Origin: Flavobacteriales bacterium
GTDB taxonomy: Bacteria > Bacteroidota > Bacteroidia > CAIKAF01
DNA: 42,843 bases
NCBI GenBank assembly: GCA_044345355.1
Contig: JBIJBG010000002.1
Span: 1 to 42,843 of the forward strand
Direction: 5' to 3'
In this document: positions 2,289-35,100 of the stretch, piece by piece
Numbering within the stretch: the stretch's first letter is position 1
Layout: every line of letters begins with the position of its first letter
Notes under the pieces: generated by a model
Databases searched by the model: none
Told to the model about the DNA's origin: nothing
What the model saw: the letters and a program-made list of their open reading frames with translations, nothing else
Translations under genes and position numbers: made by a program

Positions 2289-3341
2289 ATGATTTCCACC
2301 GCCGCCAAAAAACAAGCGCTGAGTGAGGCCTACTCCCGCTACCTGGAACAAAACCCCACGGCCCGCATCCGCAATGCTGCCGCAGATTTGGGCGTATCCG
2401 AAATGGAATTACTTTGCCTGTCCGCTCCCGAAAAAGCGGCTCCTCTCCAAAATAATTTTGAGGATTTTCTGAAAGAGGTGAAAACCTGCGGAAAAGTGAT
2501 GGCACTCACCCGGAACGAGGAGGCGGTGCATGAGCGTAAAGGATCCTACCTCAATGTTTCCTTCAACCCGCATGCCGGTTTGGTATTGGGCCTGGATATT
2601 GACTTACGCTTATTCATGGGAAAATGGAAGTTCGGGTTTGCCGTGGCAGAGCCTTTCCGCGGGGAGGAACGGTTTTCTTTTCAATTTTTCGATGCCGCCG
2701 GACAAGCGGTTCATAAAATTTACATGACGGAACATTCAGATCTGGCGGCGTATCAAATGCTTCGAGAAAAATATGCACTTGCTCCAGATCCCACCTATTT
2801 CCCCGAAGTGACGCCCGCCGCAAAACCCGTAAGAACGATTAATCCAAATCCCGATTTGCCCGGTTTTCAAAAGGCATGGACCGAGCTCAAAGACACCCAC
2901 GATTTCTACATTCTTTTGCGGAATTTCAGAATGGATCGGGTGCAGGCGTTGGAGCTTGCGCCGGAAGGGTACACCCGGAAAATGCCGGCCCATTTCTTCA
3001 AAAATATCCTTTCCGGAGCAGCGGAAAAGCAGGTTGACATCATGGTTTTCGTGGGCAATCACGGATCCATCCAGATTCATACGGGTCCGGTGCAGAAACT
3101 CCTTCAGACCGGAGAGTGGTTTAACGTGCTGGATGAGGATTTCAACCTGCACCTGAACGAAAACGGAATCAGTGCAACCTGGCTGGTGAAAAAGCCCACC
3201 ACGGACGGAATGGTCAATTCGGTGGAATGTTATGATCAAAACGGCGAATTGATTGTTCAATTCTTCGGCAAACGCAAACCGGGAAATCCGGAATCAGAAG
3301 ATTGGAGATTGCTTTTAGATGCGTGCGCCGCAGAACAATAA
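2289..3341 (+). CDS. hemS: Hemin-degrading factor / heme-binding protein, HemS/ChuS/PhuS family
   Basis: The 350-aa size fits the family. The N-terminal ...NPTARIRNAAADLGVSEMELL... and especially the GKVMALTRNEEAVHERKG block match conserved HemS/ChuS motifs. Confidence 0.75.
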   Translation: MISTAAKKQALSEAYSRYLEQNPTARIRNAAADLGVSEMELLCLSAPEKAAPLQNNFEDFLKEVKTCGKVMALTRNEEAVHERKGSYLNVSFNPHAGLVLGLDIDLRLFMGKWKFGFAVAEPFRGEERFSFQFFDAAGQAVHKIYMTEHSDLAAYQMLREKYALAPDPTYFPEVTPAAKPVRTINPNPDLPGFQKAWTELKDTHDFYILLRNFRMDRVQALELAPEGYTRKMPAHFFKNILSGAAEKQVDIMVFVGNHGSIQIHTGPVQKLLQTGEWFNVLDEDFNLHLNENGISATWLVKKPTTDGMVNSVECYDQNGELIVQFFGKRKPGNPESEDWRLLLDACAAEQ

Positions 3342-3350
3342 TCGGTAAGC

Positions 3351-3992
3351 ATGGCTAAATCGGAATTAAAAAAGAAATCACTGCTCCTGGTAGACGGAAA
3401 TTACCTGATGAGGCAGGGACTCATTTCGATTTTGCGCGAACAACCTGATTTTGATATTTTGGGAGAGACCGACTCTTTTGAGGAGGTTATCCCATTCATT
3501 ACCCTAAACAAACCAGAAGGCATACTGATCGGCCTCAACCTGCAGAGCGGTTCCGGCATCTCCCTTATCCGCGAAATCAGAAGCCGTTTCCCGAAGATGA
3601 AAATCATCGTGATTGACACCAAGGAAGATGTGAATGAAATTATTTCCATACTCAAACTGGGAGCTCAGGGGTATATTCTGAAACAGTGTGACCGGAACGA
3701 AATTTTGGACGCCTTGCGCACCGTTTTCAGCGGAAAAACCTTTTTCTGTCACAACGTGATGACGCTTAACAAAACCATCGAAAGCGAAAAACCCGTGTTG
3801 GTTTCCGAAAGAGAACTACAGGTTCTTTCCCTTATTTCCGAGGGAATGACAAATAAAGAAATTGCCGAACGCATTTTTATCAGCGAGCACACGGTAGCCT
3901 CTCATCGCAAAAATCTGATGCGGAAATTTGAGGCAGGAAATAACGTGGATTTAGTCATAAAGGCCATCAAAGAGCGGATTATCATTCCCTGA
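3351..3992 (+). CDS. NarL/LuxR-family response regulator with an atypical (Asp-less) receiver domain
   Basis: REC-like N-terminus plus a C-terminal LuxR HTH (SERELQVLSLISEGMTNKEIAERIFISEHTVASHRKNLMRKF). It starts 9 nt after the hemS stop. The phospho-acceptor position reads ILIGLNLQSGSG instead of the usual xxxDxxMPxxxG. Confidence 0.8.
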   Translation: MAKSELKKKSLLLVDGNYLMRQGLISILREQPDFDILGETDSFEEVIPFITLNKPEGILIGLNLQSGSGISLIREIRSRFPKMKIIVIDTKEDVNEIISILKLGAQGYILKQCDRNEILDALRTVFSGKTFFCHNVMTLNKTIESEKPVLVSERELQVLSLISEGMTNKEIAERIFISEHTVASHRKNLMRKFEAGNNVDLVIKAIKERIIIP

Positions 3993-4040
3993 GGCAACTT
4001 TCTGCATGTAACTTCGTTTTTCATTCCATACATTTAGGGC

Positions 4041-5879
4041 ATGATTTGCGGAATTCCGATTTATCGTTTTCTTATCCTTGCAGCGATCAGTTTGGGCAGT
4101 TTTGCGAAAACTCACGCCCAGTTTGAAGCCAACGAACGTATCGCACTGGAGTATTTTCAATCGGGAGAGTGGGAGAAGGCTGCTTTACACTACCAAAAAC
4201 TGTACGAAAAAAACCCGGCGCAAGAGCCCTTTTACCGAAACCTACTGGCCTGTTATAAAAACCTGCAGGACCTGAAAGGTGCCGAAAAACTGGCCAAAAA
4301 ACAAATTTCCCGCTTCCCTAAGGAAGCCCATTTTTGGGTAGATCTTGGAATCATTTACCGGGATCAGGGTGAAGAAAAGCAGGCCAAAAAAGCCTTTGAT
4401 CAGGCCCTGCGCGAACTTATACCCCTCCCTGACCGGGTGGCCCGTCTAGCCGCGGCTTTCGTAGCGGCAAAAGAAACCGGTTATGCCATTTCTGCCTACA
4501 ACCTGGGAGAAAGCTATTCCGGCAAAGGAATGTATGCCTTCGAAATTACAGACCTGATTCTGCAGCTGGGTAATTATACTGAAGCCTCCGAAAAAATGCT
4601 GGAACTGCTTTCGGTAAATCCTTCCCTCATCAGCCGGGTGCAAACCCTACTCGTGCGCTACCTGGAAGAAGAAGCCGAAGGACCGTTTCAAACTGCACTG
4701 AAAGCCGCTCTGCTGAAAGAGATTCAGAAAAACCCGTCCGGAAATGTATATCCCGATTTGCTGATCTGGCTTTTCGTACAGCAAAAAAATTTCGATGCTG
4801 CCATAGTACAGGCCAAAGCATTGGACAAAAGGCTCAAAGAGCAGGGAGAACGGCTCATGGAATTGGGTAATATCTGTATGGAAAACGGAGACTATGCACG
4901 CGCCGTAAGCTGCTATGAATACGTAACAGGCAAAGGATGGAATTCCTACAGTTTTCAGACGGCCAAAACCCTTTTGGTAAAAGCTTACAGACTGAAAGTG
5001 ACCGGTTCCTACCGATATGTATCCGAAGACCTGCAGAAGTTGCGCAGCCTATACGAAGAAAGCTACGCTGAAATGGGTATTACTGAAACCACGGCAGGGC
5101 TTATCATTGATTACGCGGACCTCGAGGCTTTTTATTTGGACAATCCGGAAAAGGGAAAAACGCTTTTGGAAGGACTGCTCGCTGAAAACCGCATGGCACC
5201 GCGTGTATTGGCCGAAGCCAAATTAAAACTGGCCGACATTCTCATCGTGCTGGGCGACTTATGGGAGCCCGCTCTGCTCTATGGGCAGGTAGATAAAGAA
5301 TTTAAAAACGACCTTCCCGGGCAGGAGGCCAAATTTCGTAGTGCACGGCTCGCCTTTTTCCGCGGAGATTTCGAATTGGCGCAAAGTCAGGTAAAGGTGC
5401 TTAAAGCCTCTACGTCCAAGCTTATTGCCAACGATGCGCTCTCGCTGTCCCTCATCATCATCGACAACCTGGGAAGAGATAGTGTACGTGCCCCTTTAGA
5501 GTTCTTTGCCAAAGCTGATTTGGAAGCATTCCGCAATCAGCCCCGAAAAGCCTTAGAGACCTTAGATGACCTGTTGGGATTCTACGCCACCCATCCCATT
5601 GCCGATGAAGCAATATTCAAAAAGGCCCAGATATACATCAAATTAGGAGAATTTGACCGGGCAGCACAAAACCTTGAAATTATTTATTCCACCTACCCGG
5701 ACGATAACCTTGCCGATGCTGCCCTCTTTTTGGCAGCCGACCTGCAGGAAAAGGTGTTTGAAAACCGCGAAAAAGCCATGGAATTATTCGAAAAAATCAT
5801 CACCGAACATACCTCGAGCCTATTCACGGCTGAAGCCAGAAAACGATATAGAAAACTGCGGGGCGACCAGGTAAACTGA
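4041..5879 (+). CDS. Tetratricopeptide-repeat protein with signal peptide
   Basis: 612-aa ORF. N-terminal hydrophobic signal (IYRFLILAAISLGSFAKTHAQ). Repeated helical A/Y/L-rich TPR-like units (WEKAALHYQKLYEKNP, AKKAFDQAL, DYARAVSCYEYV, EFDRAAQNLEII). Confidence 0.75.
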   Translation: MICGIPIYRFLILAAISLGSFAKTHAQFEANERIALEYFQSGEWEKAALHYQKLYEKNPAQEPFYRNLLACYKNLQDLKGAEKLAKKQISRFPKEAHFWVDLGIIYRDQGEEKQAKKAFDQALRELIPLPDRVARLAAAFVAAKETGYAISAYNLGESYSGKGMYAFEITDLILQLGNYTEASEKMLELLSVNPSLISRVQTLLVRYLEEEAEGPFQTALKAALLKEIQKNPSGNVYPDLLIWLFVQQKNFDAAIVQAKALDKRLKEQGERLMELGNICMENGDYARAVSCYEYVTGKGWNSYSFQTAKTLLVKAYRLKVTGSYRYVSEDLQKLRSLYEESYAEMGITETTAGLIIDYADLEAFYLDNPEKGKTLLEGLLAENRMAPRVLAEAKLKLADILIVLGDLWEPALLYGQVDKEFKNDLPGQEAKFRSARLAFFRGDFELAQSQVKVLKASTSKLIANDALSLSLIIIDNLGRDSVRAPLEFFAKADLEAFRNQPRKALETLDDLLGFYATHPIADEAIFKKAQIYIKLGEFDRAAQNLEIIYSTYPDDNLADAALFLAADLQEKVFENREKAMELFEKIITEHTSSLFTAEARKRYRKLRGDQVN

Positions 5880-9778: not shown

Positions 9779-10618
9779 CTATTTCTTCACGAAACGTGAC
9801 GTGTACACCTGTCCGTTTTTGAGCAGTTCCACCACATAGTACCCTGCAGTGAATACCGATACGTTTAGTGTAGCTGAAGAATGATTCAACTGCTGATTCA
9901 AAACTGTTTTTCCCTGCACGTCAATCACCCGGACAGAGCTGCCGATGAGGTGATCCGGAACGGAGATATTGAGCATTTCTTCAGCCGGGTTCGGAAACAG
10001 GTTAAATGCATTGACGATGCTTTCCGTAAGTCCGGCTCCCGGCGCTTCGGAAACGGTGAGGCTGCCGGTGTAGATCTGGTCGCCTGAGTCGCTGTTATTT
10101 CCGTTGGCCGAGTTACCTGCGGCAAAGAACGTAACGTCTCCCGTGCCTGAAGCCGGAGCAGTCCACTGGAAAGAGAATGTATATGAAGAATTGGGGCCAC
10201 TGCCGGCCACGGAGGAATTATGCACAATAAACTGTCCGCCTGATTTGGCCAATGTGGTTGCATCTGACGCAGCAAAGCCATTGGTAAACGTACTTGTGCC
10301 CGATTTTACGGCAGAAGCGGAAAAACCATATTTACTGCCGTTAGAACCACCCGCCGTCACCTGCACCTGCACGGAATACGGTTGGCCGGGAACATAACCT
10401 GTCGCTGGAACGTCCGTAATTACGGTCACACTTCCGCCTCCGGAGTTGAGGGTACCTGTATGGCAACCCGAGGTGTTGCAGGTGAGCCCTCCGTTTACCG
10501 CTGAATAATTGGCGCTCAGCGATTGGCCGGAATTTTTGGCTATGAGATGCTTGGGCAAAAGCACGTATCCGCCGGAAAAAAAGATAAAACTACCTACCAA
10601 AATGTACCACTTCTTCAT
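9779..10618 (-). CDS. Secreted protein with T9SS type A C-terminal sorting domain. The N-terminal domain is tentatively Reeler / choice-of-anchor-like.
   Basis: Signal/anchor MKKWYILVGSFIFFSGG. The C-terminal ~80 aa (FNLFPNPAEEMLNISV...GYYVVELLKNGQVYTSRFVKK) matches the T9SS CTD pattern. LTCNTSGCHTG followed by an Ig-like stretch recalls choice-of-anchor domains. Confidence 0.7.
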   Translation of the reverse strand: MKKWYILVGSFIFFSGGYVLLPKHLIAKNSGQSLSANYSAVNGGLTCNTSGCHTGTLNSGGGSVTVITDVPATGYVPGQPYSVQVQVTAGGSNGSKYGFSASAVKSGTSTFTNGFAASDATTLAKSGGQFIVHNSSVAGSGPNSSYTFSFQWTAPASGTGDVTFFAAGNSANGNNSDSGDQIYTGSLTVSEAPGAGLTESIVNAFNLFPNPAEEMLNISVPDHLIGSSVRVIDVQGKTVLNQQLNHSSATLNVSVFTAGYYVVELLKNGQVYTSRFVKK

Positions 10619-10732
10619 ATTTACTTAGTTTAGGATGCATAGTTAGTGCAATTTACAAACAATCCTGCTTTTTCAAAAAAATAATTTAAACAGGCACCCT
10701 TCCATTTTGCATAAAAAGGCATAATGTATTCC

Positions 10733-10770
10733 AAAAAAACGGGGGTATTCTCTTCGGAAAATCCCCCCGT
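10733..10770 (-). terminator. Rho-independent terminator downstream of sdhB
   Basis: The minus-strand RNA reads ACGGGGGGAUUUUC-CGAA-GAGAAUACCCCCGU followed by UUUUUUU. This is a 14-bp stem with 1 mismatch and 1 G-U pair, ~25 nt after the sdhB stop. Confidence 0.75.
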
Positions 10771-10794
10771 TCAGGTATGCTTTAATATAGAAAC

Positions 10795-11556
10795 TTATTT
10801 ACCCGTCAGATTGGCCAGCAGATATTCCCGGTTCATGCGGGCTATATTTTCCAGAGAGATGCCTTTGGGGCATTCTTCGGCACAGGCTCCCGTATTGGTG
10901 CAGTTACCGAAACCTTCCTCATCCATCTTGTTTACCATGTTCAGCACCCGTTCGTGGCGCTCGGGATCGCCCTGAGGAAGCAGTGAAAACTGAGATACCT
11001 TGGCAGATACGAATAGCATGGCGGATGAATTTTTACAGGCCGCTACGCAGGCCCCGCAGCCTATACAGGCAGCAGCGGCAAAAGCAGCATCGGCATCTTC
11101 TTTGGGAATGGGCAGGCTGTTGGCATCCTGTGCATTTCCCGTGTTTACACTGATGAAACCGCCGGCAGCCATGATACGGTCAAATGACGAGCGATCCACG
11201 GCCAAATCCTTAATTACGGGGAAGGCTGCTGCACGCCAGGGCTCCACCACAATGGTATCGCCATCCTTAAAGCTGCGCATGTGAAGCTGACATGTGGTTA
11301 CTAAATCATTCGGGCCGTGTGGGCGCCCGTTGATATACATACTGCACATTCCGCAGATTCCCTCGCGGCAGTCGTGATCAAATGCTACCGGATCTTTTCC
11401 TTCATGAATAAGACCTTCGTTAAGCACGTCGAACATTTCCAGAAATGACATATCCTCTGAAATGCCCGAAACGGGATATGTTTCAAAACGGCCTCTTTCA
11501 TTTCCGTTTTTCTGACGCCATATTTTCAGCGTTAAGTTCATTCCGGTTGTACTCAT
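10795..11556 (-). CDS. sdhB: Succinate dehydrogenase / fumarate reductase iron-sulfur subunit
   Basis: A 2Fe-2S cluster motif [15 protein letters not shown]...C, plus 4Fe-4S and 3Fe-4S motifs [11 protein letters not shown] and [12 protein letters not shown]. 253 aa. It lies downstream of sdhA. Confidence 0.92.
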
Positions 11557-11583
11557 ATTGTAAATTTTTGTTGTCTGTTCATT

Positions 11584-11989
11584 GTTATCTGTTATCCGTT
11601 TGTTTCTTCTTACCGAGATAATTTATGTATCCATTTAAAAGAGCTAATGCTGCATTTATTTTTGAGTTGTATGAGATATATTCTTCATCACTTATATAAT
11701 TCTCCTCTTTTGCAATTATCAAATGGTCTTTTAACTCAAATAACGAACCTCTGCTATGCCTACAAAATTGAATGTTCTCCTGATAATGATATCTGCCATA
11801 ACCCTCAGCAATATTATTGGTTATTGATCTGGAACATCTTATCATCTGATCTGTCAATTTGTACTTTTCATCTGTCGGAAATGTTTTGACCAGTTTTGAA
11901 ATGTTTATTCTTAAGTCTCTACATTTTTTCCAAACCTCTAAATCTTCAAAAGAACGTAAACTTTCCACTATTAACAATTAACAGATAAC
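11584..11989 (-). mobile_element. 406-bp AT-rich cassette bounded by perfect 11-bp inverted repeats and a flanking CATT direct repeat. Its only cargo is a four-helix-bundle gene.
   Basis: GTTATCTGTTA at 11584-11594 and its exact reverse complement TAACAGATAAC at 11979-11989. CATT at 11580-11583 and again at 11990-11993. Hand-counted 60-nt lines give ~27% G+C inside versus ~48% in adjacent sdhA. Confidence 0.55.
11585..11977 (-). CDS. Four-helix-bundle protein (23S rRNA intervening-sequence protein family, TIGR02436; Avd-like fold)
   Basis: The family consensus is clearly present: [10 protein letters not shown]..., [61 protein letters not shown]. There is no ATG start; candidates are TTG 11977 or in-frame GTG 11968, with an in-frame stop at 11978-11980. 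The stop codon lies inside the left inverted repeat. Confidence 0.88.
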
Positions 11990-12003
11990 CATTTCTCCAT
12001 TAA

Positions 12004-14004
12004 CTATTTATAAGACCGCTGAGCGATTTTTATGTTCTCGTAAACAAGATTTTCTTTGTGAAGTTCCCAGTTGCCTACTTCTTTCATCTCCCAGGCGGAA
12101 ACAAACGAGTAATCGGCATCATCGCGGAGTGCTTCACCTTCCTCGGTCTGGTATTCCTCGCGGAAGTGACCACCGCAGGACTCATTGCGGGTAAGCGCAT
12201 CCAGACACATGAGTTCGCCCAATTCCAGGAAATCGGCCACGCGGCCTGCTTTCTCCAACTCGGGATTAAACTCATCCGCAGAACCGGGCACCCGCACATC
12301 TTTCCAAAACTCCTCGCGCAGGGCACGGATTTCGGAGATAGCCTTTTTCAATCCTTGTTCATTGCGGGCCATACCGCATTCATCCCACATGATTTTGCCC
12401 AGTTTTTTGTGGAAATAATCTACCGATTTGGACCCTTTGATGGAGAAGAATTGATTGATACGTTCGCGCACCGCATTTTCAGCTTCGGCAAAGGCCGGAT
12501 GATCAGTAGGTATGGATGCCGTTTTGATATCAGCGGAAAGATATGACCCGATAGTGTAGGGAATCACAAAGTACCCGTCGGCCAAGCCCTGCATCAGAGC
12601 AGATGCGCCGAGACGGTTGGCGCCGTGATCGGAGAAGTTGGCCTCTCCCAATGCGTATAGCCCGGGAATGGTGGTCATTAATTCATAATCGACCCACAGG
12701 CCGCCCATGGTATAATGCACAGCAGGAAATATTTTCATGGGCACTTCGTAGGGGTCTTCACCTGTGATTTGTTTATACATATCAAACAGGTTGCCATACT
12801 TTTCTTTTACTACTTCTTTGCCTAAGTTACGGATGGTATCTGCATCGGGATTGCTAAGGTTTTGCTTGGTGGCTTCGATTTTGCCGTAACGCTCAATGGC
12901 CGCTGCATAATCTAAAAACACGGCCTGACCGGTGGGATTTACTCCAAAACCGGCATCGCAGCGTTCTTTTGCAGCGCGTGAAGCCACGTCGCGGGGAACG
13001 AGGTTTCCGAATGCGGGGTATCTTCGTTCCAAGTAATAATCTCTGTCTGCCTCCGGAATATCATTTCCTTTTTTTGTGCCTTTGCGCAGGGCTTCGGCAT
13101 CTTCCTGCTTTGCGGGAACCCAGATTCGTCCATCGTTACGGAGCGACTCAGACATCAACGTAAGTTTCGACTGATGGTCTCCCGACACGGGAATACAGGT
13201 GGGGTGAATCTGCGTAAAGCAGGGATTACCGAAATACGCCCCTTTTTTGTGAGCCTTCCAGGCCGCGGTGACGTTGCTTCCCATGGCATTGGTGCTGAGG
13301 AAAAACACATTTCCGTAGCCGCCGGAGCAAAGCAAGACGGCATGGCCGAAGTGACGCTCTAACTCGCCCGTAATCAGATTTCGGGCAATGATTCCTCGGG
13401 CTTTCCCGTCAATCATGACCACATCCAACATCTCGTGGCGGGCGTACAACTGTACGTTACCCATTCCCACCTGGCGTTGAAGTGAACTGTAAGCTCCAAG
13501 CAGTAACTGCTGCCCCGTTTGGCCGGCGGCATAAAAAGTGCGTTGCACCTGTGTACCTCCGAAGGAACGGTTGGAGAGCAAACCGCCATATTCTCTGGCG
13601 AATGGAACGCCCTGGGCCACACATTGGTCAATGATGCTTCCGGAAACCTCCGCCAGGCGGTGTACGTTACCTTCCCGCGAACGGTAATCGCCTCCCTTAA
13701 TGGTATCGTAGAAAAGACGGTAGACACTATCGCCGTCGTTCTGGTAATTTTTTGCCGCATTAATGCCGCCCTGGGCCGCTATACTGTGCGCACGGCGCGG
13801 GGAATCCTGAAAACAGAACACCTTCACTTTATATCCCAGTTCGGCCAGCGAAGATGCGGCAGATGCGCCGGCCAGTCCGGTACCTACCACTACGATTTCC
13901 AACTTACGTTTGTTGGCCGGATTTACGAGAGGAACGGAAGACTTGTATTTGACCCATTTTGAGTCAATGGATCCTTCGGGAATTTTGGAATTCAATTTAT
14001 TCAT
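12004..14004 (-). CDS. sdhA: Succinate dehydrogenase / fumarate reductase flavoprotein subunit
   Basis: FAD-binding [13 protein letters not shown], the covalent-FAD His region [14 protein letters not shown], and HYTMGG and RLGASAL blocks. 666 aa, the Bacteroidetes/Bacillus-type long form. Confidence 0.93.
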
Positions 14005-14015
14005 AATGCGGATCG

Positions 14016-14744
14016 CTATTTAATAAGGTCGGCTACGCCCATGATGTTGAAATAAAACATAATCGGGAAGGAGGCAAAACCTACGGTAATGAGTGCGGAG
14101 TAGCCTACGGCCATTTTTTCGAGAAGGGGATCGTACTTGGTGTTATTCAATCCGATGGACTGAAACCCCGAACGGATGCCATGCGAAAGGTGCATACCGA
14201 TTAAAATGACAGATATCAGGTAAATTCCTGCGTACCATGGATTCTGCAGGGCAAAGGCCACCGATTTGGCCAAGGTAATTTTATCGCCTACGGGCTCTAT
14301 ACCGCCCACGGTACCTTGGATGCGGTACGGCAGAAAAAAATTGTACAGGTGCACGATGAGAAAAAACAAGATGACGCTGCCCGTAAGTCCCATGTTTTTG
14401 GAAACCCAGCTTGTTTTAGCTTTAGAACCTGACGCATATTCTACGGGGCGGGCTTTTTTATTTTCCATGGTTAAACGGACAGCCTGCACCACATGATAAA
14501 TAATGGAACCGAAAAGAAACACTTCCACAATGCGAATCAAAATACTGGTCACTAAAGCATGGGATGCTTCATTAAAGGCCTTTCCTCCGTCGGTAGGATC
14601 AAAAATCGGTTTATAAAGAAGTAAGTTGGTGTAGAGGTGGTTGGCCAGAAAGAAAGCCAGAAAAAGGCCGGTGAGGGCCATTAACACTTTCTTGCCTATG
14701 CTGGAGTTGACCACTGCTGAAATTTTTGCCGTAGATACTGCCAT
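14016..14744 (-). CDS. sdhC: Succinate dehydrogenase cytochrome b subunit (b558 family, five-TM type)
   Basis: Polytopic membrane protein directly upstream of sdhA, with [24 protein letters not shown] near the N-terminus as in the family. The start was chosen at ATG 14744 (MAVSTAK...) rather than the track ATG 14792. Confidence 0.85.
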
Positions 14745-14780
14745 AATACGATTACAATTTTCTGCGTTTTGATTAGTGAA

Positions 14781-14788
14781 CAAAAGTA
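14781..14788 (-). promoter_or_regulatory. Candidate -7 promoter box for the sdh operon (TACTTTTG on the minus strand matches TAnnTTTG)
   Basis: The motif lies 37-44 nt upstream of the preferred sdhC ATG, in an AT-rich 290-bp intergenic region. No convincing -33 TTTG was found. Confidence 0.3.
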
Positions 14789-15033
14789 ACATTTACCTTT
14801 AAAAAGTTTACCTTTCCTCAACCAATATTTCATTTATATCAACAGATTTCCGGCCATTTGGTTTTATCAAAAATAAGTTCTTTAAAAAATTTAATATCAG
14901 GCTGCAGAAATTTGGCTTACCGGGCAGCTGAAAGCAAACCCTGGTTGGTTTTGCACATTCCAAATCGAATTAACGCGGATTTGAAATTATTCTCCAAAAA
15001 GGATAATTCTTTTAAAATCAGAAAAAAACAACC

Positions 15034-30955: not shown

Positions 30956-32092
30956 ATGAGTGCACTGAACCGACGCATAGGCATTTTGGGCGGAGGCCAA
31001 CTGGGCCGCATGTTTCTGCAGGAAAGCTATAATTACAACGCACGGGTTTCCATTTTAGACCCGGCGGCAGATGCACCCTGCGCCGATATTGCCCCGCGTT
31101 TTGTTCAGGGCAGCTTTACCGATTACGGGACGGTGCTGGACTTTGGCCGAACCTGCGACATCGTGACCATTGAATTTGAACATGTAAATACGGAAGCTCT
31201 TCGCCAACTGGAACAAGAAGGCAAAAAAGTATATCCACAGCCCCATATATTGGAACTGATTAAAGACAAAGGCGCGCAAAAAGCGTTTTACACCGAACAC
31301 GGAATCCCCACGGGACCTTATTTTTTGGCGGAAAATGCGGAGGAAGTAAGGCAAAAAATCACGCAATTTCCGGTGTTCCAAAAGCTGCGCAAAGGCGGAT
31401 ACGACGGCTACGGGGTGAAACCCCTTCGCGTGGCGGCAGATTTGGATTCGGCCTTTGATGAACCGAGTCTGGTGGAAGAGTTTGTGGATTTTGAAAAAGA
31501 ACTTTCGGTCATCGTGGCCCGCAACGAAAAGGGGGAAACGGCGGTGTATCCGGCGGTGGAAATGGTGTTTCATCCGGTGGCCAATATGGTGGAGTTTTTG
31601 GCTTCACCGGCCCAAATCAGCCCCGAAACCGAGAAGAAAGCCCGGGAAATTGCCCGCCAGGTCATAGAAGCACTGGGCATGGTAGGTATTTTGGCGGTGG
31701 AAATGTTTCTGACCAAAACGGGAGAAATCTGGGTGAACGAGGTGGCACCCCGGCCCCACAACAGCGGCCACCAGACCATTGAAGGGAATTACTGTTCACA
31801 ATATGACATGCATTTCCGCAGCATCATGAATCTTCCGTTGGGTTGTACGGATATCGTGCAGCCTTCGGTTATGGTGAACCTGCTGGGCGACCCTGCCCAC
31901 AGCGGACCGGCGGTATATGAAGGACTGGAAGACGTGATGCGTATTCAGGGAGTTTATGTGCACCTGTACGGAAAAACCCATACAAAACCCTACCGCAAAA
32001 TGGGTCACGTGACTATATTAGATGCGGATGCAGCGCGAGCTTTGGAAAAAGCCCGCAAAGTGAAAAACACTTTGCGGGTAATCTCCCTGTAA
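30956..32092 (+). CDS. purK: 5-(carboxyamino)imidazole ribonucleotide synthase (N5-CAIR synthetase)
   Basis: N-terminal IGILGGGQLGRM, an ATP-grasp core (FPVFQKLRKGGYDGYGV, ELSVIVAR), PRPHNSGH and a C-terminal YGK...PYRKMGHVT. Confidence 0.9.
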   Translation: MSALNRRIGILGGGQLGRMFLQESYNYNARVSILDPAADAPCADIAPRFVQGSFTDYGTVLDFGRTCDIVTIEFEHVNTEALRQLEQEGKKVYPQPHILELIKDKGAQKAFYTEHGIPTGPYFLAENAEEVRQKITQFPVFQKLRKGGYDGYGVKPLRVAADLDSAFDEPSLVEEFVDFEKELSVIVARNEKGETAVYPAVEMVFHPVANMVEFLASPAQISPETEKKAREIARQVIEALGMVGILAVEMFLTKTGEIWVNEVAPRPHNSGHQTIEGNYCSQYDMHFRSIMNLPLGCTDIVQPSVMVNLLGDPAHSGPAVYEGLEDVMRIQGVYVHLYGKTHTKPYRKMGHVTILDADAARALEKARKVKNTLRVISL

Positions 32093-32105
32093 GATATTAT
32101 TATGA

Positions 32106-32129
32106 AACACAAAAAGTACTTTTTGTGTT
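32106..32129. terminator. Perfect 24-nt palindrome acting as a probable bidirectional terminator between convergent purK and the giant T9SS gene
   Basis: AACACAAAAAGT|ACTTTTTGTGTT is perfectly self-complementary. It lies 14 nt after the purK stop and overlaps the stop codon (32128-32130) of the minus-strand gene. It is followed by attctttt on the plus strand. Confidence 0.5.
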
Positions 32130-35100
32130 ATTCTTTTACAAAAAGTACCGAACGAACCGAACCTCCTTCGTTTGTTCTTATGATATACATTCCTGCGTCG
32201 CCGGTGAATTGAATAGCCAACCTTCCCGAAGCATCGGCCCGGAATTTAGCCAAAACGGTACCCCTTAAGTCGATAAGTTCCCATTCTGCGCCCGCCCGAC
32301 TGCCCGAAAGCCAGGCAATACCCTTGTTGGGATTGGGATACAATATCGGTTGAATTCCTCCCGCTTCACATTCTCCTCCCAAATGCACCGAAGGATGGGC
32401 TTCTGAATCTCCGTTGTAATCATACTGATGCAGACGGAAATATCTGCCCCGCGATTCACGGAATTCTTCCAACGTGTAGGTATAATCTGTCAGCTGATTG
32501 CTGTTTCCGTTACCCTCTATGCGGGCGGCCTTTTCCCAGGTAATCAGATCGGCCGACTGCTCCAGATCAAAATGGCTGTTGTTGATTTCGGAGGCGGTGG
32601 TCCATTCAAATCGGGGCATTCCCTCCTCACAGGTTACATCAAAACTGATCAATTTGACAGGCAGGGGACTGACCCCGCTGCCGCCGATGGCGAAAGGTGA
32701 GAAGGTACCCGTATATCCGTAAAAGGGAAGCGTTTTTATTGAATCAAGCACAACGGCTGTCTGGTTAATCGTGGTAACCGCGGGCAACTGCCACCCGGAA
32801 CCGGCCTCATAGTGATTCAGAAAATAACCTGACATGGCAGCCGATTGCTGGAGCATTCTCCAACCGAATTCAAAATCCACACCTCCCGTGTTTGCCGGAT
32901 TGGTCTTATCAATATCCCAGGTACGTTGCACATGGGGAGTCTGAATGGGCGAACCCGACGTTCCGTTCTCGAGTACCTCATCGAAAACACGCACCGAAAA
33001 CACGTCGGAATCCACATTCTTATTGGTGATTGTTACGGGATTATACGAACTTCTGCCCACCGCAAAAGTGAATAAGCCGCTGCTGCCGGGAATATTTGCT
33101 TTTAAGCGGCCCGTACCGGCCGTTTTTACATAATTCAGCGAATCGGCTCCCACGATCTGGGATACCGTGAGATTGAAGTTGCCGAGATTTATCTTCTTGG
33201 AACCAAAATTAAAGGTAAGCGTACCCACCGTTCTGTCCATGTCCAACACAGGTTCGTTCGCGGCATCGGCACTCACATCCATCGCCCGACCGGCATCTGC
33301 CGCGATGCCTGCGCACCAGTTGCCGGAATTCGTCCAGGAGCTGTTTACGGCTCCCGTCCACTGGCATATATTGGTACCGTACAGCTCCACCGCGCCCACC
33401 GAACTGGTGGCACTTCCGCAGGCCCCGTTACTTACGTTTACCCTGAATTTGGTATTGGTGGTTATGTTCTGATAGGAATATGCGGGCTGGGTTGCCGAAG
33501 AAATATTGTTCCAGGTTGTCCCGCCGTCCGTGGAACGCTGCCACTGGTAAGTGGCACCCGTGGAACCCGTGAGCTGGAGCACACCGGAATTATTGACCCC
33601 GCAGTGGTAATTGGTACTTACGGTACCGCCCGTGGGTGCTCCCCCGGCGACCACATTAACCGGGTACCAGCCCGTAAGTTTCGCCGCCGTAGAACAGGTG
33701 GCACTTCCCACCTGACAGCGGAAATAGTAAGTACCGGCGGATGTCAGTAAATTACTCAGTGATGCGGATGTTGATGCTATATCCGTAATGGTAGAGGTTG
33801 TATCTGTGGCCCGCTGCCACTTTTGCACCGAACCGGTGTATCCGCCCAGAGTAAGCTGGGCGTTGCTGTTGGCGCATACCTGGTTGCTGTTGGCTGTAAC
33901 CACTCCCGCATTGATTTCGGTAACCGCAACCGACTGAGAATTGGTGGCCAACGTACAGGCTCCGTTCACCATTATGGCACGGTAATACGCCGTGGTGCTC
34001 AGATTGCTTAATCCGAGAGAGTCAGTGGTGTTGCTTATGGTTTGTATATTTCCCGTAATCAAAAAATTATCGGGGGAACTTTCCCAGCGGGCCACACTGC
34101 CGGATGACCCATTTAACGTGAGCGTGGCATTGTCTCCCGAACACACTGTGGTGCCTCCGCTGATGTTTCCGGACGTAGATCCCAGAACTAAAACACTGCG
34201 GGAGTAATCCAAGGTGCCTGTGGGATTATCGCCCGGCATATCGCCATACTCAATGATACAGGCACGCCCGTTGTTCGGAAAATCATTCCATTTACCCGAG
34301 TTGGCCCATAAATGCCCGTAATCTTCCTGACCGGGAGTTCCAGTACTCCATACATCGTTGGGCTCATTATTGGCATATTGCCCGCCCAGATTCCAGTTCT
34401 GATACACCCCGGAAACACCACTCCCCGGTTTCTCGGCCGTGGAGGCATTCCCCGTGCGTATCTGAACCCCTTTTTCAGGCCCCGTAATCCAGTGCCAACG
34501 CCCCTCGGCATTACTCTGGCTGGAGTATTTCGTGTATCCCACGGCTCCGTTTATCTGTCCCGCGTTATCCGAACAGCCGATCCACGTATCGTGATTGATT
34601 AATGAAGATACGAAAGCATTCTCCGCAGCGGAACTGATGGTAACCAGATATCCCTGACGACCGAAAAATGTTTTAGAGGCCGCAAAAGCCTTGGCCGAAG
34701 TCCAAGACTGTACTGTCGGGTAATACTCGTAGTAATGTCCGTTGAAGTAATTGTAAAAATTCGTACTGGCCGAAAAAGTAATGCGGCGCGTTTCGGGATT
34801 GCACGTTACCGCCGAAGTTTTCAGCCTTACCGTGCGCAATAAAGCCTGCCAGTCAGCCGTACCGGCCGAACCCGTAAATACCAGGCTGCGGCTGGTGGTA
34901 TTAAAGGGAGCTGCCGTCACTCCTGACGGAAGAGCCCCCGTGTAATCCAATATATCTCCCGAGGTGTAGTTTTCCGTGATGGATACCGAAAAACCGGAGA
35001 TGGTTCCGTTTCCCGTGACGGTCAGTGCGCCGTCTACCACGGTAGCCACATTATTCGTTACGGAAAGCTGGGTTCCGGTACCGCTTATGCTCATGGTGGT

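Follow-up and report, generated by a model that had tools for sequence, protein, structure and literature searches.

What is a gene of the 23S rRNA intervening sequence family doing between two genes of a core respiratory operon? The question is raised by a stretch of 42,843 nucleotides from a Flavobacteriales bacterium (contig JBIJBG010000002.1, here called the window), in which the spacer between sdhA and sdhB holds an AT-rich cassette coding for a protein of that family, a four-helix bundle. The earlier note on this DNA, made from the letters alone, had offered two ideas: a non-autonomous mobile cassette resembling a miniature inverted-repeat transposable element (MITE), and an RNA-processing module akin to an intervening sequence (IVS). 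We find that the observation was real but misread. The cassette is one instance of a family-wide design, in which genes of family PF05635 are enclosed by mirror-image arrays of 7-nt units, and it is not a MITE. We give about even weight to the fuller reading that it is an old, vertically inherited, promoterless PF05635 gene set in inverted heptamer arrays, and the mRNA counterpart of the intervening sequences of rRNA.

Anatomy of the cassette

The cassette lies on the minus strand between sdhA (12004-14004, an open reading frame (ORF) for the 666-amino acid flavoprotein subunit with FAD_binding_2 and Succ_DH_flav_C matches) and sdhB (10795-11556, an ORF for the 253-amino acid iron-sulfur subunit with Fer2_3 and Fer4 matches). 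The borders of the spacer had been placed correctly at the sdhA stop codon (12004-12006) and the sdhB ATG ending at 11556. The perfect 11-bp inverted repeat that first drew attention to the spacer is also present, with GTTATCTGTTA at 11584-11594 and its reverse complement TAACAGATAAC at 11979-11989. This repeat represents a single register in a pair of inverted, degenerate heptamer arrays, of which the upstream one is GTTATCT-type and the downstream one AGATAAC-type. Read on the operon strand, the 5' arm (11969-11989, minus) consists of three units, GTTATCT GTTAATT GTTAATA; it begins 14 nt past the sdhA stop and runs up to the GTG start of the cassette gene. The 3' arm (11570-11597, minus), delimited from the sequence and the inverted-repeat registers, has four units, GGATAAC AGATAAC AATGAAC AGACAAC. 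It codes for the C-terminal ...TDNR* of the cassette protein, and its last base lies 13 nt ahead of the sdhB ATG. Because both flanks consist of 7-nt units, a second register exists, in which 11570-11587 and 11972-11989 are 89% complementary over 18 nt.

Each repeat is abutted by CATT (11580-11583 and 11990-11993), and the two copies had been taken for a target-site duplication. Their positions are right, but the outer CATT belongs to the adjoining heptamer, which reads AATGAAC on the operon strand, and two orthologous loci (L001 and L007; L numbers denote the loci that we compared) have AATTAAC in its place. The CATT pair of the window is therefore a derived point change and not a target-site duplication. 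Taken alone, moreover, the 11-bp repeat does not stand out from chance: counted within 600 bp, perfect inverted repeats of 11 bp or more number about 10 in the window, where ~6 are expected by chance (42,843 x 600 position pairs x 4^-11, our own arithmetic), and the window's flank score of 14 (scoring is described below) is attained by 11% of control genes. The repeat is meaningful only because of its placement, its conservation in orthologues and the family-wide pattern. Allowing up to one mismatch, we found no second copy of GTTATCTGTTA in the window beyond the two arms, and the window holds no second family gene.

The gene (11585-11968, minus) lies within an ORF that spans 11585-11977 on the minus strand. 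As had been described, it is on the operon strand, has no ATG start and ends inside the left repeat, its stop codon (11585-11587) falling within the 3' array. Two starts had been considered, and we fixed the start as GTG 11968, giving 127 amino acids, because this codon is aligned to ATG in two orthologues and because an exact-sequence look-up found only the 127-amino acid product on record; the 130-amino acid product starting at TTG gave no match. The assignment to the four-helix-bundle / 23S rRNA IVS family was borne out by profile hidden Markov models, far over the cut-offs for both PF05635 (7.9e-35, 119.7 bits, cut-off 33.8) and TIGR02436 (2.1e-32, 111.6 bits, cut-off 24). Models for Avd, the accessory protein of diversity-generating retroelements (DGRs), stayed under their cut-offs (NF033474 equivalog 20.1 bits versus 80; bAvd Pfam 18 versus 40).

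The AlphaFold2 monomer model has four helices and a predicted local distance difference test score (pLDDT) of 94. Foldseek matched it best to the two solved members of the family, 2GSC (template-modelling (TM) score 0.85-0.96; phmmer 1.5e-12) and 2RLD (TM 0.75-0.88), each as five chains A-E, and more distantly to the DGR Avd structures 4DWL and 8UB7 (TM 0.72-0.75). 2GSC is reported as a pentamer (PMC4990558), and the function of the PF05635-type proteins is described as still uncharacterised (PMC11270868).

Inverted heptamer arrays as a rule of the family

We examined the flanks of 81 distinct family genes, 70 of them from an unselected metagenome scan, by aligning the upstream 116 nt to the reverse complement of the downstream 139 nt. 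Over the 81 genes the median score for inverted repeats was 19, versus 10 for direct repeats and 9 for composition-preserving shuffles. Among the 70 unselected metagenomic genes 79% had z > 3, with a median arm of 35 nt. Scores of at least 14 were reached by 79% of the family genes versus 11% of 300 control genes from the same loci (Mann-Whitney p = 3e-26). Both flanks also show a lag-7 identity peak (0.39 versus ~0.28), which is nearly absent in the controls.

The units themselves vary among elements (GTTAAAT, CGAAACT, GGAAAAT, GGTTATC, GAGAGTA, GGGAATT and others), but the downstream array is always complementary to the upstream one. Even inside the sdh-located clade the unit changes, being GTTATCT in the window clade, GAAAACG in L017 and GAAATAA in L092. 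The handedness of the arms is fixed: the 5' arm is poor in C (7%) and the 3' arm poor in G (9%), and 36 of 43 cassettes begin with the G-rich arm, equally for either strand. A copy on a Nostoc plasmid has a like design, with GGGAAAA / CCCTTTT arms. We found no published link between the PF05635/TIGR02436 family and inverted heptamer arrays in a search that covered subscription journals little, so that an earlier description is possible. An IMG/VR scan and tblastn against phage records gave no finding.

Two plasmids of Nostoc sp. PCC 7120, gamma (L178, 1504-1854) and alpha (L179, 1498-1848), carry one and the same four-helix-bundle accession, encoded by DNA that differs at scattered positions. 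The gamma copy lies directly downstream of an annotated ISL3 transposase gene, and its upstream sequence is common to the alpha copy. The downstream CTTCTGC / CCTCTGC heptamer arrays of the two differ in length by one unit, and the upstream array is not their complement.

Low G+C content is a second trait of the family. The block at the window locus has 30.5% G+C, rather than the ~27% counted earlier, and the contrast with its flanks stands, sdhA and sdhB having 50-51%. All 34 family genes tested were below their neighbours, by a mean of 8.5 points and with old insertions included (31% versus 51% for the window gene). Low G+C is thus a family trait and no sign of recent arrival or transfer; something other than recent transfer keeps these genes AT-rich, even after very long residence.

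History of the insertion

All five of the closest lineages (the window clade, SdhAB 88-96% identical) carry the gene in the same sdhA-sdhB spacer. Their four-helix-bundle proteins are 70-90% identical, dN/dS is 0.05-0.07, and synonymous sites are saturated (dS at least 1). We conclude from the shared site, the saturated dS and the low dN/dS that the gene is old, vertically inherited and functional. Despite this saturation, the 17 nt AATGGTTATCTGTTAAT of the upstream arm (11977-11993) are identical across four orthologues; in the predicted closing helix (see below) they supply the 5' strand.

In most other Bacteroidota the gene is absent from the sdhA-sdhB spacer, which measures roughly 0-170 nt. 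We found no alignable empty site: all members of the clade carry the cassette, and the nearest cassette-free genomes (SdhAB at most 83% identical), with spacers of -3 to 86 nt, are too divergent to align. Taking out 11570-11989 leaves 27 nt, which is inside the range of cassette-free spacers. The same spacer also holds a family gene in more distant lineages (L017, L041, L092, L103, L121, L125 and L151), and the sdhC-sdhA spacer does so in L012. These sdh-located genes split into at least two groups in a rough neighbour-joining tree of 120-amino acid proteins, which is too weakly resolved for counting insertion events.

Several other arrangements were observed at this site. In L088 (2501-2980) the orthologous ORF is lengthened to 159 amino acids, through the 3' array, and ends 15 nt ahead of sdhB. 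An unrelated ORF of ~300 amino acids fills the spacer in some Chitinophagaceae and Ferruginibacter (L021 1973-2868, L032 2603-3501, L087 2556-3501), and a Flavipsychrobacter (L036 2801-3501) has there a 237-amino acid ORF that is lipoprotein-like in appearance. The sdhA-sdhB spacer seems to tolerate insertions repeatedly. A palindrome of another kind, G+C-rich and like repetitive extragenic palindromic (REP) sequences, occupies the spacer of L065 at ~3400-3485 (GAGCCTGTCGAAG ... CTTCGACAAGCTC). In a metagenome-assembled genome of Flavipsychrobacter (L052 1033-1449), the sdhA-sdhB spacer holds a divergent family gene that stops after 78 amino acids through an apparent frameshift, and arrays of GGCAATT / ATTGTCA type still flank it.

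Host operons and gene-less forms

For genomic context we used 40 unselected family genes with both neighbours visible. Thirty-eight of these (95%) had the orientation of the upstream gene, and 34 that of both neighbours, at median gaps of ~70 nt. Typically, the genes on either side are consecutive and belong to one enzyme or pathway: sdhA|sdhB (in repeated cases), trpE|trpG, trpG|trpD, trpC|trpF, nuoF|nuoG and cysD|cysN, as well as gmd with a downstream epimerase-family gene, which we read as fcl-like. One trp operon, that of a Roseivirga (L097), has two different cassettes, at 2501-2872 and 4862-5239, in the trpG|trpD and trpC|trpF spacers.

Mirror-image heptamer arrays with short loops and no gene occur in the same kinds of spacer in other Bacteroidota. 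Such hairpins were seen between sdhA and sdhB in many Pedobacter and other Bacteroidota, Mesoflavibacter and Winogradskyella among them (L030 3349-3370 / 3464-3493; L037 3427-3442 / 3460-3485; L043, L060, L031, L033, L086 3480-3502) and in the L011 spacer, between trpE and trpG of Roseivirga (L096/L097 1815-1870), and at several sites in L145, L173 and L137. Those in sdhA-sdhB spacers may be left over from cassettes since lost, or may be the element in a stand-alone form. Comparison of their units with those of a nearby cassette gave a mixed outcome overall, the two being clearly equal in 3 of 11 cases.

Locus L145 shows two further arrangements. A second, frameshifted family gene (561-846, minus) lies between GTAGAAA / TTTCTAC arms (514-547 / 852-881), and elsewhere heptamer arrays (3130-3221 and 3867-3957) are read through in a 584-amino acid ORF (2928-4682) as low-complexity peptide segments.

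Dependence of the cassette on host transcription is suggested by its co-orientation, by neighbours that belong to one pathway and by a promoter search. As Bacteroidota promoters differ, we searched for the Bacteroidetes-type -7 motif TAnnTTTG and not with a sigma-70 model. The motif is absent from the operon strand of the sdhA-sdhB spacer, and it is found at 14868-14875 (minus), upstream of the operon's first gene sdhC (14016-14792, minus; an ORF for the cytochrome b subunit with a Sdh_cyt match), as a putative sdhC promoter element.

Predicted RNA fold and a proposed role in the transcript

For the 471-nt sense RNA, the predicted minimum-energy and centroid structures both contain a closing helix, with GUUAUCUGUUA and UUGUU paired to AACGG and UAACAGAUAAC over 16-18 bp. 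Constructs of the arms only, from four orthologues, folded at -15 to -23 kcal/mol (z -4.8 to -6.0), each in a different register; the window's own gave -15.1 kcal/mol (z = -4.8). Stable folds in differing registers are what is expected if pairing is selected and the repeat units slip. The whole insert folds no more stably than shuffles (z = 0.59), as expected of coding sequence. The stem-bounded anatomy of an IVS-like module, one of the two ideas first put forward, is upheld by the predicted sense-RNA fold and by flank complementarity that persists across the family despite divergent arms.

We favour a transcript-level, IVS-like role because the architecture is that of rRNA intervening sequences, with their RNase III-cut stems. 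The cassette would be transcribed as part of the sdhCAB mRNA, and in this transcript the two arrays would pair as the closing helix of 16-18 bp, looping out the whole ORF. Selection would keep the pairing, while the arms would drift freely in sequence and slip in steps of full units. The helix would probably serve to render an insertion inside a host transcript tolerable, through excision, through setting the dose of the cassette protein, or both, and the G-poor 3' array would then serve as the sdhB leader. Anatomy, family rule, vertical descent, purifying selection and co-orientation are shown by the data; our inference covers co-transcription, the pairing of the arrays in vivo, cleavage by RNase III and an effect, if any, on the expression of sdhB.

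Several results weigh against this role. The stem of the window is weak, and among the weakest that the family has: its flank score is at the 21st percentile of the family, and duplex energy over 100-nt flanks was no better than that of shuffles (RNAduplex, z = -0.8, a measure too permissive to single out the window). For a substrate of RNase III, a helix of 11+5 bp, or of 18 bp including mismatches, is short. On the sense strand the arm mismatches show no excess of G-U (77 G-U versus 96 A-C, with 250 transversions), and sense and antisense strands are equal in duplex energy; for these two reasons nothing shows that pairing is selected as RNA rather than as DNA. Finally, the conservation of the upstream arm, which goes beyond pairing, hints at a sequence-specific partner.

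Alternative explanations

The last of these points would be accommodated if the arrays were primarily tandem sites, putatively bound by protein, that control translation of the cassette gene and of sdhB, their complementarity being secondary. The binder could be the cassette's own pentameric protein, or else a factor of the host, with ribosomal protein S1 and a cold-shock protein as examples, and gene-less arrays elsewhere would be regulated in trans. The 7-nt periodicity of both flanks fits such sites, as do the five-chain matches to 2GSC and 2RLD, the Avd pentamer in the RNA-protein complex of DGRs (PMC4990558) and the unit strongly common to a gene-less hairpin and a nearby cassette in 3 of 11 cases. 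We nevertheless regard this explanation as unlikely, since it leaves unexplained why about 79% of the elements have mirror-image arrays, and since units differ between proteins that are 60-70% identical and most gene-less hairpins do not have the unit of the neighbouring cassette. If instead the arrays act in DNA, as a cruciform or single-strand hairpin recognised by its structure during insertion, excision or copy-number slippage, then a single mobile family would comprise the cassettes as its autonomous form and the gene-less hairpins as its derived form. Conservation of structure with variable sequence, the lack of a G-U signal, the equal energies on both strands and the fixed handedness of the arms would all be in keeping with this, and so would the patchy distribution (sdhA|sdhB in at least two protein groups, sdhC|sdhA, and the trp, nuo and cys operons), the gene-less hairpins in the same spacers and the one-unit difference between the arrays of the two Nostoc plasmid copies. 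Against it, no near-identical copies were seen at different Bacteroidota loci, and no recombinase is linked to the cassette; the window copy has long been immobile, and 95% co-orientation with the upstream gene requires an extra argument from selection. We rate a DNA-level hairpin as quite unlikely.

The remaining explanations are those suggested by the window alone. A classical MITE-like transposon, with 11-bp terminal inverted repeats, a CATT duplication and a transposase encoded elsewhere, would account for the perfect repeat with CATT adjoining on each side, for the AT-rich cargo and for the short spacer found at this site in most relatives. This explanation is largely refuted and very improbable. 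The duplication is derived, as L001 and L007 have AATT for the AATG of the window; the repeat is at chance level; the ends differ across related elements, so that a transposase would lack a conserved end to recognise; and low G+C is family-wide. Vertical inheritance at the site under strong purifying selection and the single copy in the window likewise run counter to it, and with these results the mobile-cassette idea of the earlier note finds no support. That the cassette is simply a small accessory gene, whose flanks are complementary by coincidence of AT-rich, low-complexity spacers, would suit the unexceptional scores of the window taken alone. At the family level it is refuted by the strong contrast with direct-repeat, shuffle and control-gene baselines, and at this locus it is opposed by arms conserved in orthologues and by the arm-only fold (z -4.8 to -6.0); we consider it extremely improbable.

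Relation to known systems

Among the closest known counterparts of the cassette are the 23S rRNA intervening sequences with an S23p / PF05635 ORF, as in Coxiella burnetii and Leptospira (PMC4990558). The Coxiella IVS has a 28-bp terminal stem that is cut by RNase III, and its ORF, of the PF05635 family, is reported to be decaying and untranslated (PMC4990558). Common to these elements and the window cassette are the protein family, complementary termini able to form a stem, a G+C content under that of the host, vertical retention after acquisition and, probably, reliance on a host transcript. The cassette differs from them in the location that defines the class, as it lies between sdhA and sdhB in mRNA and not in rRNA, with no Rfam family matched in 10500-13000 or at nine related loci. 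It also differs in its arms of heptamer arrays, a feature that we did not find described for intervening sequences. Its predicted stem of 16-18 bp is shorter than the 28 bp of Coxiella, and its ORF is under strong purifying selection, in contrast to the reported decay of the Coxiella ORF.

Heptamer repeats occur in cyanobacterial genomes, where they are known as STRR (short tandemly repeated, repetitive) sequences. Beggiatoaceae, Cyanobacteria and some Bacteroidetes have direct TAACTGA repeats that lie upstream of start codons (MacGregor 2015, PMC4679880), and no role of bacterial heptamer repeats is accepted (PMC4679880). Like TAACTGA and STRR repeats, the arms of the cassette are tandem 7-nt intergenic units that lie, in forward orientation, shortly upstream from a start codon; the 3' array of the window is of TAACAGA type, one base off TAACTGA. 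The arrays of PMC4679880 are direct, with no partner array and no linked gene, and neither the 23S IVS protein nor four-helix bundles are mentioned there. PF05635 cassettes, unlike TAACTGA and STRR repeats, have pairs of mirror-image arrays around a gene, built from many different units.

Resemblance to MITEs and other transposons with terminal inverted repeats is confined to the short inverted repeats that end an AT-rich intergenic insert and to the occurrence of gene-less short forms beside gene-bearing ones. Unlike these, the window cassette has no target-site duplication, no sequence-conserved ends and no linked transposase, is present in a single copy in the window and is vertically inherited, and the orientation of the family is strongly biased to that of the host genes. 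With DGR Avd the protein has the four-helix-bundle fold in common; it is set apart by its scores below the Avd cut-offs, and the window has no reverse transcriptase, template or variable repeats. Integron attC sites and REP sequences with their hairpin-forming doublets (REPINs) are imperfect inverted repeats whose structure is conserved and whose sequence is variable, and they accompany genes without promoters in arrays that are transcribed. An attC site is placed to one side of its cassette and needs an integrase, REPINs are linked to REP-associated tyrosine transposases (RAYTs), and neither is built of heptamer arrays. We regard both as analogies only, as neither an integrase nor a RAYT is present at the window cassette.

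Other features of the window

The remaining large ORFs of the window are housekeeping genes or genes for cargo of type IX secretion. In agreement with the first description, Pfam identified no transposase, integrase or reverse transcriptase among the 28 large ORFs of the window (4 of which had no match at all), and no PADLOC model for anti-phage defence was matched. Short perfect palindromes (arms of 11-12 bp, loops of 0-11 nt) are clustered at 32052-32148, between a purK-like gene and a convergent ORF of 1513 amino acids; these are probably terminators.

Implications

The main interest of the locus lies in the family rule that it exposed, and less in the window copy itself. This rule provides a strong and easily tested genomic link between an uncharacterised protein family and heptamer repeats without an accepted role, and thereby a handle on both. 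It suggests that intervening sequences are not an oddity of rRNA, which would be one habitat, the mRNAs of core operons such as sdh, trp, nuo and cys being another. For annotation, many oversized spacers and AT-rich dips in Bacteroidota operons would be explained without recent horizontal transfer. For the organism, the position of the cassette raises the physiological question of its effect on the balance of SdhA and SdhB synthesis.

A broader proposal, which we put forward as doubtful, is that a single, widespread class of element unites PF05635 genes with inverted heptamer arrays. Its gene-bearing form, to which the window cassette and rRNA intervening sequences would belong, would be autonomous, and gene-less hairpins and orphan arrays such as TAACTGA and STRR would be derivatives or targets, with the pentameric protein as the agent that binds, maintains or spreads the arrays. 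If true, a protein family and a class of repeats, both unexplained for ~30 years, would thereby gain a function.

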